Assembly (NCBI GenBank): GCA_009779745.1
Contig: WRDR01000004.1
Span: forward strand, 3,713 to 67,712
Length of the DNA stretch: 64,000 nt
DNA from: Alphaproteobacteria bacterium
GTDB lineage: Bacteria; Pseudomonadota; Alphaproteobacteria; UBA9219
Direction: 5' to 3'
In this document: in pieces, positions 29,245 to 52,603 of the stretch
Layout of the letters: the number at the start of each line of letters is the position of its first letter
Numbering within the stretch: position 1 is the first letter of the stretch
Program-made: the position numbers and the translations under genes
The notes under the pieces: model-generated
The model's database searches: none
What the model was told of the DNA's origin: nothing
The model's input: only the letters and a program-made list of their open reading frames with translations

Positions 29245-29321
29245 GGCCCCGTAGCTCAGTTGGATAGAGCAACAGCCTTCTAAGCTGTGGGTCAGACGTT
29301 CGAATCGTCTCGGGGTCGCCA
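29245..29321 (+). tRNA. tRNA-Arg (TCT)
   Basis: The sequence folds by hand into a cloverleaf: acceptor ggccccg/cggggtc, anticodon stem acagc/gctgt with loop cTTCTaa (anticodon TCT), T-loop ttcgaat, and a 3' GCCA end. The length is 77 nt. Confidence 0.9.
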
Positions 29322-29327
29322 TTTTTT

Positions 29328-29362
29328 AAAATGGAAAATAGAAAATTGAAAATGGAAAATGA
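29328..29362 (+). repeat. GGAAAAT-type heptamer tandem array (5 units), left flank of clpS
   Basis: The array reads aaaatggaaaatagaaaattgaaaatggaaaatgaaaa. Confidence 0.8.
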
Positions 29363-29681
29363 AAACACCACCGGACATGCACCCACTCCCGACAACACCG
29401 CCTTAAAAGAACAAAAGGTTAAGCTCAAACGCCCTCCGTTGTATAAAGTTATTCTGCTGAATGATGATTATACTCCTATGGATTTTGTTGTAAGTATCAT
29501 TGTTTCTATTTTCAATAAGCCCGTTGATGCTGCAAAAGCCCTGATGCTCGAGATTCATAAAAATGGTAAGGCGGTCTGCGGAGTCTACCCCTTTGAGGTA
29601 GCCGAAACAAAAATGCTCCAAGTTCTTTCTATTGCCAAAGGCGAAGAGCACCCTCTCCAGTGCGTTATTGAGAAAGAGTGA
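29331..29681 (+). CDS. clpS: ATP-dependent Clp protease adaptor ClpS
   Basis: The segment YKVILLNDDYTPMDFVVSIIVSIFNKPVDAAKALMLEIHKNGKAVCGVYPFEVAETK is the ClpS signature. The first ~10 codons (MENRKLKMEN) are encoded by the GGAAAAT repeat array, so the true start may be at 29352. Confidence 0.85.
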   Translation: MENRKLKMENENTTGHAPTPDNTALKEQKVKLKRPPLYKVILLNDDYTPMDFVVSIIVSIFNKPVDAAKALMLEIHKNGKAVCGVYPFEVAETKMLQVLSIAKGEEHPLQCVIEKE

Positions 29682-29699
29682 TAGGAATGTAGAACTATC

Positions 29700-29724
29700 A
29701 ATTTTCCATTTTCCATTTTCAATT
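29700..29724 (-). repeat. Heptamer array in inverted orientation, right flank of clpS
   Basis: The array reads attttccattttccattttcaattt. Confidence 0.8.
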
Positions 29725-29745
29725 TATAGTGCTACCCTCTTCCCC

Positions 29746-30519
29746 ATGTATACTTACAACATAGAATCATTTCTCGCAGGGCATACCTTTGCTTTTTTAC
29801 TCCTGCTTTGCCGCATCGGTGCCTTTCTTATGGTAGTTCCCGGGTTCGGCGAGAAATTCGTTCCGGTGCGCATAAGAATGGTTTTCGCTTGCCTAATATG
29901 CTTGCTAATAGTCCCTCCTTTTGCTTCCTTAATGCCTCCTATTCCTCAGTCTACTGCGCTTCTCGCAGTTATCATCTTCAAAGAAATGCTAATAGGCGTT
30001 TTTTTCGGAATCCTAGTGCGTATGCTGCTCCTTACTCTCGATGCTGCAGGTGCTGTTATCGGTATGCATTCCGGACTCTCTAATGCCAACACTATGAACC
30101 CTGCTTTGATGTCTCAGAGCCAGCTCCCCAGTACTTTTCTCACTATGTCCGGCATTGTCATGATTTTTGTAATCGGGCTTGATCACTATCTAATCAAGAC
30201 TCTCATTGCTTTGTATAACTCCTTTCCTGTATCGGACGCTCCTTTGATGCTCGGCGATATGTCTAAAACCGTGATGACTACTGCAAGCAGAACTTTTAGT
30301 TTCGGCGCAAGCCTAGCTGCTCCTTTCTTCGTCATAGGGCTTTTAATCTATGCTACTACAGGCATTATTCAAAGACTCCTGCCCTCTATTCAGCTCTTCT
30401 TCCTTATGCTTCCTATTCAGATTTGGGGCGGTTTGGCTCTTATGCTTCTCACCGTTTCCGTAATTCTTTCCTTGTGGGTTCAGTTTTTTGAGAACTCTGT
30501 TTCTACTTTTTTTCTATAG
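29746..30519 (+). CDS. fliR: Flagellar biosynthetic protein FliR
   Basis: The protein reads MYTYNIESFLAGHTFAFLLLLCRIGAFLMVVPGFGEKFVPVRIRMVFACLI… and is a polytopic membrane protein of FliR length (257 aa). The ORF-track start at 29632 overlaps clpS and is rejected. Confidence 0.8.
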   Translation: MYTYNIESFLAGHTFAFLLLLCRIGAFLMVVPGFGEKFVPVRIRMVFACLICLLIVPPFASLMPPIPQSTALLAVIIFKEMLIGVFFGILVRMLLLTLDAAGAVIGMHSGLSNANTMNPALMSQSQLPSTFLTMSGIVMIFVIGLDHYLIKTLIALYNSFPVSDAPLMLGDMSKTVMTTASRTFSFGASLAAPFFVIGLLIYATTGIIQRLLPSIQLFFLMLPIQIWGGLALMLLTVSVILSLWVQFFENSVSTFFL

Positions 30520-30532
30520 TTAGAATTTCCAA

Positions 30533-31606
30533 ATGGCAGAGCAAAATCAAGACCAAGATCAAGACCAAAAAACAGAAGAAGCCTCTGACAAAAAACTCGA
30601 AGAGGCTCGGCAAAAGGGGCAAATTCCGGTAAGCAGAGAAGTCGCCTCTTGGGTCTCGCTTTTGGGCGTTCTGGTCATGGTCGCCTTTGTCTCACCTCAC
30701 GCAAGCGCATCGCTCGGCAAGTATTTAGGCTCTTTTTTAGAGTACTCTTATACAATTTCTCTCACGCAAACTAACTTTCAGGCTCTCTTTTTCAGCGTCA
30801 TAGGCAATCTGATTCTCATACTGGGCATAGCTTTCTGCGTTATGATAGTTTTCGTCATACTGGGTTATATGATTCAGACCGGGTTTTTTATGTCTTTGGA
30901 CTTACTGGAGCCTAATTTCTCTAAGCTGTCTCCGATAAACGGACTGAAAAAAATGTTTTCCATGCAGTCTGTTGTAGAACTTTTCAAATCCCTCCTTAAG
31001 CTTCTGCTTCTTGGAAGCGTTGCTTACTTGGTTCTCATGTCTCTGGCCAGAGAGTCAATGCACTTCTCAGGAGGCTCTTTGTCTCAAGTTATGCCGTTTT
31101 TATATGACAATCTGACTTTTCTGATAAAGATGCTGCTTTTAGTCTTTCTGGTCATAGCTGCGTTTGATTTGTTTTGGACTAGGTTTCAGTATTTCAGAAA
31201 ACTGCGCATGACAAAGACTGAAGTCAAGGAAGAGTACAAGCAGTCTGAAGGAGATCCTATGATTAAATCCAGACTCCGGCAGATACGAATGGAAAAATCC
31301 AGAAAGCGCATGATGGCTGAGGTACCTAAGGCGGATGTAGTCATTACTAACCCGACTCACTATGCCGTAGCCCTCAAGTATAATGCGCTCAAAATGAGAG
31401 CTCCCGTAGTTGTGGCAAAGGGCATTAATTTAATAGCCTTACGCATCAGGGAAGCAGCGGAAGAGCACAAAGTACCGATAGTAAGCAATCCGCCTCTTGC
31501 AAGAACACTGCATTCCAGCGTAGATATAGACGAAGAGATTCACATAGAGCATTACAAGGCTGTGGCAGAGATAATTTCTTATGTTTACAAGACGCGAAAA
31601 AAATAG
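30533..31606 (+). CDS. flhB: Flagellar biosynthetic protein FlhB
   Basis: The N-terminus has …EEASDKKLEEARQKGQIPVSREV. The conserved NPTH autocleavage site (VVITNPTHYAVAL) is present. The protein is 357 aa. Confidence 0.9.
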   Translation: MAEQNQDQDQDQKTEEASDKKLEEARQKGQIPVSREVASWVSLLGVLVMVAFVSPHASASLGKYLGSFLEYSYTISLTQTNFQALFFSVIGNLILILGIAFCVMIVFVILGYMIQTGFFMSLDLLEPNFSKLSPINGLKKMFSMQSVVELFKSLLKLLLLGSVAYLVLMSLARESMHFSGGSLSQVMPFLYDNLTFLIKMLLLVFLVIAAFDLFWTRFQYFRKLRMTKTEVKEEYKQSEGDPMIKSRLRQIRMEKSRKRMMAEVPKADVVITNPTHYAVALKYNALKMRAPVVVAKGINLIALRIREAAEEHKVPIVSNPPLARTLHSSVDIDEEIHIEHYKAVAEIISYVYKTRKK

Positions 31607-51578: not shown

Positions 51579-51614
51579 GTTTTTAACCTTGTGTGTTTTA
51601 TATAATGTTAGTAT

Positions 51615-51640
51615 AAAATGGAAAATGGAAAATGGAAAGA
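51615..51640 (+). repeat. Heptamer array upstream of cysE
   Basis: The array reads aaaatggaaaatggaaaatggaaaga. Confidence 0.8.
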
Positions 51641-51651
51641 AAGATTAAAAC

Positions 51652-52431
51652 ATGCACATAGAAAAAGTCTGGGAACAAATAAAAATATCTGCGAAGCGTA
51701 TGGCGGAAGAGTCTCCTATACTGGCTAAGCTGGCTGAATCTGTTGTGCTTAACAGCCCTGATTTTAAAACTGCTCTCGGAAGAGTTCTATCCAGATACAA
51801 CAATGATACAACTGTTACTGCCGGCCAGTTGTTTGATTTGTTTGAATCTGTGTACTCTAAAGCTCCGGATATCATAGAGGCTGCTGCGTACGATATTCTG
51901 GCGGTACTGGACAGAGACCCGGCAGCGACCGATATAGCATATCCCTTTTTTCACTTCAAAGGCTTTCACGCCTTGCAAACATACCGCATATCTAATTTTC
52001 TGTGGAAGCAGGGACAGAAAGATACTGCCGTATTCCTGCAAAACAGAAGCAGCATGTTATATTCCGTAGACATTCACCCGGCTGCGAAAATAGGCAAAGG
52101 GATTTTGCTGGATCATGCGCACAGCGTAGTCATAGGAGAAACTGCGGTTATAGAGGATAATGTGTCTATGCTGCATGAAACAACGCTGGGCGGCAACGGC
52201 AAGGACAGAGGCGACAGGCACCCGAAGGTTCGGCAGGGCGTAGTCATAGGCGCAGGAGCAAAAATACTGGGCAACGTCACAATAGGCAAGAATTCCAGCA
52301 TAGCCTCCGGCAGTGTCGTGCTGGAAAATGTTGAGGAAAACACCACTGTGGCAGGAGTACCTGCAAAACTGGTAGGAAAAGCAAAACACGCTATGCCTTC
52401 CATGGAAATGGATCATACTTTGCCGTTATAA
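51652..52431 (+). CDS. cysE: Serine O-acetyltransferase
   Basis: The SATase N-terminal domain plus a hexapeptide-repeat C-terminus (GETAVIEDNVSMLHETTLGG…RHPKVRQGVVIGAGAKILGNVTIGKNSSIASGSVV) are present. The protein is 259 aa. Confidence 0.85.
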   Translation: MHIEKVWEQIKISAKRMAEESPILAKLAESVVLNSPDFKTALGRVLSRYNNDTTVTAGQLFDLFESVYSKAPDIIEAAAYDILAVLDRDPAATDIAYPFFHFKGFHALQTYRISNFLWKQGQKDTAVFLQNRSSMLYSVDIHPAAKIGKGILLDHAHSVVIGETAVIEDNVSMLHETTLGGNGKDRGDRHPKVRQGVVIGAGAKILGNVTIGKNSSIASGSVVLENVEENTTVAGVPAKLVGKAKHAMPSMEMDHTLPL

Positions 52432-52432
52432 A

Positions 52433-52466
52433 GGAAAGGAAAATGAAAAATTGAAAATGGAAAATA
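52433..52466 (+). repeat. Heptamer array downstream of cysE
   Basis: The array reads ggaaaggaaaatgaaaaattgaaaatggaaaat. Confidence 0.8.
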
Positions 52467-52520
52467 TGTAAAAATTACAAATTGTTAACAGACTATTCCT
52501 AATTCCTAATTTCACTTTTA

Positions 52521-52554
52521 ATTTTCCATTTTCTATTTTCCATTTTCCATTTTA
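52521..52554 (-). repeat. Heptamer array (inverted) upstream of the Hsp70-like gene
   Basis: The array reads ttaattttccattttctattttccattttccatttta. It forms an inverted pair with 52433-52466 around a 55-bp spacer. Confidence 0.8.
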
Positions 52555-52603
52555 TATAATTATGCTATAAAGCTATGTTTATAATAAATAAATGGAAATA
52601 TAA

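Follow-up and report, generated by a model that had tools for sequence, protein, structure and literature searches.

GGAAAAT heptamer arrays and an intervening-sequence-like S23p element in a protein-coding operon of an uncultured alphaproteobacterium

What are the short tandem arrays of the heptamer GGAAAAT that recur at gene boundaries in the DNA of this uncultured alphaproteobacterium, and why do some of them face each other across a single small gene? The 64,000-nucleotide stretch examined here (the window) is part of a 116.8-kb metagenomic contig (ENA ERZ27257304), and the same sequence occurs in three other assemblies. A first-pass annotation had reported eight such arrays, all of which are present where it had placed them, and had likened inverted pairs of them to the ends of a non-autonomous mobile cassette or to recombinase sites. 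One pair encloses a gene for a four-helix-bundle (4HB) protein of the S23p family (PF05635), and this element is an S23p-type intervening-sequence (IVS) element that lies in an mRNA operon, within a genome-wide family of heptamer simple sequence repeats (SSRs). The GGAAAAT arrays as a whole are probably the heptamer-built terminal repeats of this IVS-type selfish element together with dispersed copies that lack its open reading frame (ORF). Two puzzles are thereby joined outside rRNA, namely the excess of 7-nt repeats and the role of the common S23p/4HB proteins. To our knowledge, the excess of 7-nt repeats at gene boundaries, known since the cyanobacterial short tandemly repeated repetitive (STRR) sequences of 1990, is still without an explanation, while S23p/4HB proteins are known mostly as passengers of 23S rRNA IVSs and as relatives of Avd.

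Anatomy of the four-helix-bundle cassette

The complete element (46590-47006, ~417 bp) lies between a GGDEF gene and uvrD and is co-oriented with both neighbours. Its ORF matches 105 of the 106 profile positions of the Pfam family (E=2e-28), the NCBIfam model TIGR02436 (E=1.4e-31) and the PDB entries 2RLD (E=1.4e-39) and 2GSC, the Xanthomonas S23p protein (E=0.015). The called product has 124 aa (P0001), with the probable start at the ATG at 46987 (MENGKLKKEN...); the ORF opens ATG GAA AAT GGA AAA TTA (MENGKL), and its first five codons are encoded by the 5' array. The same array encodes the last codons of the GGDEF ORF (...EKMEN-TGA, stop at 46990-46992), and the cassette ATG follows that stop by 2 nt. 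At the other end, the 3' array starts at the cassette TAA, reads AUUUUCC... on the mRNA strand and ends 22 nt before the uvrD ATG. In the RNA fold of the element (dG -103.5 kcal/mol, z=-4.65), the arrays pair without interruption over 24 bp and so enclose the 4HB ORF, and the minimum free energy and centroid structures agree. An independent assembly of the same strain (SRR10512951 contig) starts at window position 46975, breaking in the 5' array.

IVSs of 23S rRNA that carry S23p genes are found in helix 9, 25 or 45 in Leptospira, Coxiella burnetii, Xanthomonas and Brucella. The C. burnetii IVS has 428 nt, an S23p ORF and a 28-bp terminal stem of inverted repeats that RNase III cleaves; immediately ahead of the S23p ATG it has GACAGAT in two or three tandem copies, depending on the strain, and the protein appears not to be made (PMC4990558). 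The window element has an ORF of the same family, sense to the host transcript, and nearly the same length (~420 versus 428 nt), a comparable stem (24-28 bp) and tandem heptamers of variable number that run up to the start codon. It also shares with rRNA IVSs a sporadic distribution that looks like horizontal transfer. In contrast to them, it lies between protein-coding genes, is built from GGAAAAT instead of GACAGAT, has arrays that supply both the stop of its neighbour and its own start, and has further arrays without an ORF scattered elsewhere; excision by RNase III would apply to it by analogy only. The element combines an S23p ORF, a stem of at least 20 bp and sporadic presence, as in S23p-type IVSs, with 5' heptamers reaching the start codon, as described for Coxiella.

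Comparison with other genomes is consistent with insertion of the element into an uninterrupted operon. In two distant relatives (L125 and L126), whose UvrD proteins are 64-65% identical to that of the window, GGDEF is followed directly by uvrD across a spacer of 94-156 bp that holds neither a 4HB gene nor arrays, while a third (L127) has the order ligA-GGDEF-x-uvrD. The expectation that a bracketed gene would be absent from the same locus in relatives was borne out for the 4HB gene. No close relative of the organism was found in the collections searched (the best match of the GGDEF protein in a metagenome scan was 48% identical) and the other assemblies are of the same strain, so the empty-site test is limited to synteny at deep distance.

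The ends of the element offer no support for a classical transposon. The best direct match between its outer flanks scores 8, against a control mean of 8.2 and a 95th percentile of 10, and the corresponding match at the array pair around clpS scores 7, so the target-site duplications that the first-pass annotation had suggested seeking outside the array pairs were not seen above chance at either place. Pfam scans of window ORFs revealed no transposase, integrase, reverse transcriptase or HUH gene. The lack of both a duplication and a transposase or integrase among the scanned ORFs means that a classical non-autonomous DNA transposon is not supported, and of the mobile-cassette proposal it is the existence of cassette ends at the 4HB gene that stands. 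An integron cassette was rejected as well: the boundaries consist of heptamer arrays only, no GTTRRRY core was seen by inspection, and no integrase domain was returned by the Pfam scans.

Four-helix-bundle genes and their heptamers in other operons and phyla

Homologues 62-84% identical to the window 4HB protein are abundant, often on contigs of ~1 kb. These values, obtained for proteins in unrelated operons and hosts, compare with only 55-65% identity for housekeeping proteins of the nearest relatives. Close homologues are inserted co-directionally in atpA-atpG, motA-motB, fliP-fliQ and between an ABC-C39 exporter and HlyD, and one lies upstream of tRNA-Leu in a Ruminococcus metagenome-assembled genome (MAG). 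Every close-homologue context that was fetched has GGAAA[A/G]T units running into the start codon and an inverted array beginning at the stop codon, and an array-encoded MENGK or MESGK start is present in ~50 of the best 120 homologues. In one related context, the arrays enclose the 4HB gene and a second small ORF. The same GGAAART motif accompanies this one protein lineage in an alphaproteobacterial MAG and a Ruminococcus MAG, at no fewer than 8 insertion sites. The cassettes of the atp operon have GGAAAGT/ACTTTCC where those elsewhere have GGAAAAT/ATTTTCC, which hints at compensatory change between the arms; since essentially one lineage is involved, this is a hint only. Variation in array copy number, which the first-pass annotation had suggested checking, was seen between L228 and L224, the former having one ATTTTCA unit fewer at the same locus, and was absent from the window's own arrays in four assemblies.

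The Ruminococcus cassette next to tRNA-Leu(TAG) (MAG contig CAZPOG010000041; L037, 2701-3262) has GGAAAAT-type inverted ends and lies just upstream of the tRNA gene. It is flanked by a direct duplication of ~30-45 bp (score 29) that comprises the tRNA leader and the 5' half of the gene to the anticodon loop, resembling the outcome of insertion at, or recombination within, the tRNA gene.

A tblastn search of annotated plasmids, which were not selected for repeats, with the window 4HB protein gave 31 records, twelve of which were fetched. The 4HB genes on these plasmids lie in contexts such as hsdS-hsdR, RND adaptor-permease, DrmD-MmeI (DISARM), cas2-cas1, DUF1156-HEPN and helicase-methylase, and the period-7 arrays that border them have motifs particular to each lineage: AATTAGG/AATGAGG in Monoglobus (L237), TGGTCAC x13, an STRR-type unit, in Euhalothece, TAGTGAT x18 in Bernardetia, GCGAATT in two Nostoc, a TAACTG-type motif in Chondrinema, ATTTTAG in Gloeocapsa and GGAAAGN/CGGAGAG in Treponema. 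Distant 4HB genes encountered incidentally elsewhere have GTCAGAG-type (L089), GGGACGC-type (L092) and CCGCCAT-type (L103) flanks. Overall, a period-7 score of 11 or more occurs within 160 bp in 17 of 23 4HB contexts but nowhere in 678 kb of control DNA, while other periods reach scores of 4-8 in the 4HB contexts, with one exception of 15 in the 5' flank of L092. The motif tracks the protein, as homologues with at least 62% identity to the window protein always have GGAAART and those with 59% identity or less have other motifs. The pairing of 4HB genes with arrays was found in Pseudomonadota, Bacillota, Bacteroidota, Cyanobacteriota, Spirochaetota, Chloroflexota and other phyla in the comparison set.

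The association also made a prediction that could be examined in Xanthomonas campestris, in which the homologue of the Xanthomonas S23p protein of known crystal structure (2GSC) was found between accB and accC. Its 5' flank reads GGGAATC GGGAGTG GAGAATC GGGAATC and its 3' flank, inverted, reads CATTCCC CATTCTC GACTCCC TATTCCC. The heptamer GGGAATC, known as the dominant one of the X. campestris genome, had been counted there 186 times, 70 of these as convergent inverted pairs, and no connection with S23p was made (Rehm 2015, PMC4692102). Searches of the open-access literature found no paper that connects S23p genes outside rRNA with heptamer arrays, and the general coupling of PF05635 genes with lineage-specific heptamer arrays is apparently unreported.

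Direct duplications are rare at these loci. None above chance was found at 15 of 19 inverted-array contexts, the exceptions to chance-level scores being L037, L089 (score 17) and contexts with directly oriented flanking arrays. At L089 (3280-3860, an Ignavibacteriales MAG), a ~22-bp direct repeat (CAGAATGCGAAGAATGTnGT), apparently a copy of the 3' end of the upstream gene, borders a distant 4HB gene and its GTCAGAG-type inverted arrays on both sides. On a Planktothrix agardhii plasmid (L246) and at L245, L248 and L240, direct copies of composite arrays, such as (AATCCCC)6(AATCGTA)4, occur on both sides, as though recombination had brought the gene and a single array copy into an array; the arrangement at L246 points to recombination between arrays that were already there and away from a cut-and-paste mechanism. 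Finally, a cassette with perfect (AATTCGC)4/(GCGAATT)4 ends on plasmid pNsp_c of Nostoc sp. ATCC 53789 (L241, 237-1133) is preceded by 76 aa from the N-terminus of a C5 cytosine methyltransferase, identified by a weak Pfam match (E=6e-4). The 92-aa ORF downstream gave no match; the cassette may interrupt a protein-coding (C5-methylase) gene.

Heptamer arrays elsewhere in the window

A pattern of two GGAAAAT units with up to two mismatches matches the window 27 times, compared to 1.21 expected, and none of 100 shuffled sequences reached 27. The strong arrays are confined to a period of 7 nt (eight arrays, with none at each of the periods 5, 6, 8 and 9), and a laxer threshold gives 17 arrays of period 7, five of period 6 and one of period 8. 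At scores of 11 or more there are nine period-7 arrays in the window and none in the 678 kb of unrelated control loci. Although 86% of the window is coding, all 17 period-7 arrays lie at gene boundaries, either in spacers or at the very ends of ORFs. The first-pass statement that the arrays are always intergenic holds for this boundary placement and goes too far when taken strictly: one array (44636) falls within the tail of the uvrD ORF, with 35 codons still to come before the stop, and others extend into the ends of the GGDEF, 4HB and clpS ORFs. Nor are the arrays a CRISPR, as had been recognised, since their 7-bp units are contiguous while CRISPR repeats measure 24-48 bp and alternate with unique spacers.

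The orientation of the arrays is also biased. The polarity GGAAAAT...ATTTTCC occurs in all three inverted pairs of the window and in 10 of 12 pairs in other genomes, and the pooled count of 13 out of 15 is significant (P=0.007 combined). In addition, arrays occupy adjacent spacers beyond what random placement gives (four adjacent pairs, simulated P=0.003). Because of this excess and the polarity bias, the bracketing of genes is not purely accidental, even for host genes. The coordinates of the arrays and of the features named with them are collected in Table 1.

Table 1. Arrays, genes and tRNAs of the window referred to in the text (window positions)
Feature	Position	Strand	Remarks
GGAAAAT-type array	29326-29365	+	directly after tRNA-Arg(TCT); holds possible clpS start codons
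Inverted array	29701-29725	-	between clpS and fliR
Solo array	44636-44673	-	inside 3' tail of uvrD ORF, beyond last helicase domain
3' terminal array of 4HB cassette	46590-46613	+	
5' terminal array of 4HB cassette	46972-47006	-	
Solo array	51613-51640	+	divergent ligA/cysE spacer
Array, first arm of ORF-less hairpin	52438-52465	+	
Inverted array, second arm of ORF-less hairpin	52521-52555	-	
clpS	29331-29681	+	Pfam ClpS E=1e-31, domain residues 33-111
4HB/S23p gene (PF05635, TIGR02436)	46613-46993	-	Pfam, NCBIfam and PDB matches
tRNA-Arg(TCT)	29245-29321		array directly after
tRNA-Asp	13396		array beside
Other heptamer array at gene boundary	7634-7658		
Other heptamer array at gene boundary	13250-13344 (array at 13313)		
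Other heptamer array at gene boundary	18491-18512		
Other heptamer array at gene boundary	19732-19766		
Other heptamer array at gene boundary	25660-25730		
Other heptamer array at gene boundary	33415-33432		
Other heptamer array at gene boundary	38764-38790		
Other heptamer array at gene boundary	48098-48137		
Other heptamer array at gene boundary	52495-52511		
Other heptamer array at gene boundary	55705-55736		

Profile scans agree with the gene names given earlier (ClpS, UvrD, the PF05635 '23S rRNA IVS protein', CysE and an Hsp70-like protein), and the reading of arrays into protein termini was also correct: the longest clpS ORF starts MENRKLKMEN, its first ten codons being array-encoded, and the array in the uvrD tail encodes ...KWKIGNGDEY... 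in frame. The two arrays around clpS can pair over 19 bp (z=-3.0). The idea that clpS travels as a cassette nevertheless found no support, as its nearest homologues are 55-62% identical and stand in unrelated contexts (clpS-clpA or alone); because this identity is in line with that of other housekeeping genes, clpS is taken as an ordinary host gene. Arrays also flank cysE, as had been noted, at 51613 (12 nt upstream of the ATG and unstructured as RNA) and at 52438. Both clpS and cysE are ordinary host genes between arrays, with no sign of mobility; the interpretation of inverted pairs as cassette ends is retained for the 46590/46972 pair and unsupported for these two genes.

The inverted pair reported ahead of the Hsp70-like gene exists as an ORF-less hairpin (52438-52555) between that gene and cysE; its RNA fold has -27.6 kcal/mol (z=-3.8), and its loop of ~55 nt holds the ATTCCTA array at 52495-52511. 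The Hsp70-like gene itself (52604-55174) encodes 856 aa, of which only residues 3-364 form an Hsp70/MreB-type ATPase domain and the remaining ~490 have no family match. In assembly L003 it is split by a single-base indel into ORFs of 478 and 350 aa.

Besides GGAAAAT, the window contains other heptamer families, including ATTCCTA/ATTCCAC, GAAATGT/GGAATGT, GAGAGTG and AATTAGG/AATGAGG. The last of these is the type that flanks the Monoglobus 4HB gene, on which basis further 4HB genes are predicted in this genome. The gene pgk (18513-19733) lies between (ATTCCTA)3 and ...GGAATTAGG, the array at 38764-38790 fills the rpoB-rpoC spacer, and both tRNA genes of the window adjoin a heptamer array. At the 3' end of rpoC, a hairpin of GAGAGTG/GAGAGTT and their complement (34546-34623, arrays at 34546 and 34593) overlaps the last codons and folds with -32.3 kcal/mol (z=-5.9), a structure like the GGAAAAT hairpin in kind but with another motif. 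The genes between the arrays are core chromosomal ones (topA, dprA, pgk, rpoB, rpoC, ligA, uvrD, cysE, dapB, fliR, flhB and ribosomal protein genes). A search of the window with Rfam returned the two tRNAs only, with no rRNA and no known RNA family at any array, and scans of 44400-52700 for promoter and terminator consensus sequences did not exceed the shuffled expectation. A region of ~1.4 kb (48052-49469) that separates GGDEF from ligA contains three small ORFs without a family match (48213-48566, 48785-49120 and 49201-49473) and has the heptamer array at 48098 at one edge; GGDEF and ligA are adjacent in L127, and the region may be a second insertion.

The contig carries three more arrays within the 10 kb that follow the window. 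Between secG and pyrG, a (GGAAAAT)4-5 array (L249, 2564-2598, past the window end) contains the annotated pyrG start, which gives the protein an array-encoded extension ahead of the conserved KFIFITGGV. A scan of species genomes for GAAAATNGAAAATGGAAAAT gave at least 120 loci, where ~4 would naively be expected for random sequence, and the matches listed came from Planctomycetota, Bacteroidota, Acidobacteriota, Bacillota, Omnitrophota, Patescibacteria, Ignavibacteria and others. Short-loop hairpins and array pairs 200-400 bp apart around non-coding DNA are common wherever the motif occurs. Within one Ruminococcus MAG (RUG13064), the same non-coding sequence of ~270-400 bp (TTGCGGAACTCGCCTGCGGCGAGTTG...GGAGCGRAGCGACTCC) lies between inverted GGAAAAT arrays at L030 (7274-7742) and L060 (3224-3554), and L012 shows the beginning of the same insert, a dispersed element like a miniature inverted-repeat transposable element (MITE) with GGAAAAT ends. 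In practical terms, arrays of this kind add spurious or doubtful residues to the N and C termini of called proteins (ClpS, UvrD, PyrG and GGDEF) and break short-read metagenome assemblies.

Explanations for the arrays and their significance

There are several ways in which a repeat could come to occupy so many gene boundaries and also the ends of one gene family. The favoured explanation, that the arrays are terminal repeats of an IVS-type selfish element plus ORF-less copies, would work as follows. The element sits co-directionally in an operon, its 5' array providing the stop of the upstream gene as well as its own start and its 3' array beginning at its own stop. In the operon transcript, the arrays would pair, and the resulting duplex of ~24 bp would close the ORF into a stem-loop. 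By analogy with the S23p IVSs of 23S rRNA, RNase III could then cut the duplex, so that the element would be removed from, or would split, the host transcript and leave the neighbouring genes intact. Array length would drift by replication slippage. The remaining arrays (the clpS pair, the solo array before cysE, that in the uvrD tail and the hairpin after cysE) would represent the same repeat family without the ORF, and such solo arrays and hairpins may be ORF-less derivatives of the element ends or copies that depend on the element in trans. Arrays would be tolerated only at gene boundaries, for reasons that may include the lack of a stop codon in most of their frames, their ATG content and the unstructured, A-rich leaders formed by solo arrays.

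Several observations weigh against this explanation. At least 11 arrays but a single 4HB gene are present in the window and the next 10 kb, and among the 120 array-bearing loci listed from other genomes a 4HB gene is adjacent at only ~3. From this proportion it follows that most arrays are solo or ORF-less and that a GGAAAAT array cannot be taken in every case to mark a PF05635 gene, a proposition that was rejected; the solo arrays could be independent SSRs. Array length is identical in the four assemblies of the strain, and the empty-site comparison uses genomes that are only ~45-65% identical in protein. The stems are A-U rich, and their cleavage by RNase III is an analogy. The element is found between a GGDEF gene and uvrD instead of in 23S or 16S rRNA, and because it lies outside 23S rRNA it is not an IVS in the strict sense. 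Finally, some distant 4HB genes (in Planktothrix, Pseudanabaena and Anabaena) are flanked by direct, not inverted, arrays, which fit insertion into, or recombination at, pre-existing arrays, so that causality may run in either direction.

It is a tentative possibility, clearly less likely than the explanation above, that 4HB genes and heptamer arrays form one system, in which each protein lineage travels with its own motif and acts on it in trans by binding, propagating or processing it. Two known systems offer parallels. RAYTs are Y1/HUH transposases with known chemistry that act with REP sequences, palindromes of 20-40 bp. Like the REPIN/RAYT arrangement (REPtron), the window element consists of a single gene between inverted copies of a short repeat found elsewhere in the intergenic DNA of the genome, singly or as hairpin doublets, with a motif specific to the gene lineage; unlike the REPtron, it encodes a 4HB protein without a transposase domain or known catalytic motif and its repeats are tandem heptamers, so that the likeness is an analogy only. 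Avd, the accessory protein of diversity-generating retroelements, is a pentameric four-helix bundle that binds nucleic acid and reverse transcriptase. The window protein belongs to the same superfamily at a distance, its NCBIfam match to Avd being faint (E=0.0096) and well short of the cut-off; it is assigned to TIGR02436 and not to the Avd equivalog, and its neighbourhood contains no reverse transcriptase, template repeat or variable repeat.

The arrays also resemble the heptamer SSR families described previously, namely the cyanobacterial STRR, GGGAATC of Xanthomonas and GGGGAYT of Nostoc (Rehm 2015), and TAACTGA of Beggiatoaceae, cyanobacteria and Bacteroidetes (MacGregor 2015). Common features are the strict 7-nt period, two to more than ten units per array, placement at gene boundaries, often directly on start codons, numerous copies of a given motif in each genome, convergent inverted pairs and variation in length between strains. 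The window arrays themselves have exact 7-nt units, are confined to gene ends and frequently form convergent pairs. They differ in having a new motif (GGAAAAT/TGAAAAT) in an uncultured alphaproteobacterium, with the same motif in MAGs of many other phyla, and in the link with 4HB genes, which is drawn here and absent from those papers. These similarities raise the alternative that the arrays are autonomous SSRs grown by slippage at gene boundaries, that their pairs and brackets are by-products of density and that 4HB genes simply land or survive there. This is unlikely, but has points in its favour: according to Mrazek 2007, as cited in PMC4692102 and PMC4679880, an excess of heptamer SSRs in intergenic DNA is established for many bacteria, 4HB genes are missing next to most arrays, the number of units differs from sample to sample, the 4HB gene of L246 lies between direct composite array copies as if inserted, and clpS and cysE look immobile. 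Against it stand the constancy of GGAAART with one protein lineage across phyla and insertion sites, array boundaries that are fixed to the ORF (its start falls in the final unit of one array, and its stop is where the 3' array begins), the 13:2 polarity bias and the clustering in adjacent spacers, and slippage alone leaves unexplained both the restriction to period 7 and the enrichment of arrays beside 4HB genes by orders of magnitude.

Somewhat more doubtful still is the alternative that the arrays are cis sites of a post-transcriptional or transcriptional regulon, bound by a trans-acting nucleic-acid-binding protein, in which the array pair around a gene would control how well it is translated or how stable its mRNA is; the binder could be a 4HB toroidal pentamer related to Avd. 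Sense arrays do stand on or just before the start codons of clpS, the 4HB gene, cysE, pyrG and a 640-aa ORF in the contig extension, much as reported for TAACTGA repeats in Beggiatoaceae, where a post-transcriptional regulator has been proposed (MacGregor 2015, PMC4679880). In addition, solo arrays are unstructured and would be accessible as RNA, and a binder of the 4HB family would fit the tracking of motif by protein and the faint similarity to Avd. Yet the genes next to arrays share no function, the antisense arrays of fliR, uvrD and the Hsp70-like gene lie as near to start codons as the sense arrays do, and the S23p protein of Coxiella appears not to be produced at all (PMC4990558). It is very improbable that the pairs are terminal inverted repeats of MITE-like transposons or attC-like recombination sites mobilised by an enzyme encoded elsewhere, since the inverted ends, small size, varied insertion sites, assembly breaks at arrays, recurrent non-coding insert of the Ruminococcus MAG and long duplications at L037 and L089 are outweighed by chance-level flanks at the window cassettes and at most inverted-array contexts, by ends that vary in length and register unlike the terminal repeats bound by transposases, and by the absence of transposase, integrase and HUH genes among the scanned window ORFs and of GTTRRRY cores by inspection.

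If 4HB genes and arrays do form one system, the 4HB gene would be the 'master' of dispersed heptamer arrays, as RAYT is for REPINs, and the excess of 7-nt SSRs (STRR, GGGAATC of Xanthomonas, TAACTGA of Beggiatoaceae and GGAAAAT) would be explained. A large uncharacterised protein family would gain a function, and the rRNA IVS would be the special case of an element inserted into a hairpin of rRNA. A causal link could be tested directly in culturable organisms, such as X. campestris at its accB-S23p-accC locus and Nostoc, and would define a class of tiny selfish genes that reside in essential operons (atp, acc, mot, fli, hsd and cas), apparently without harm to them.

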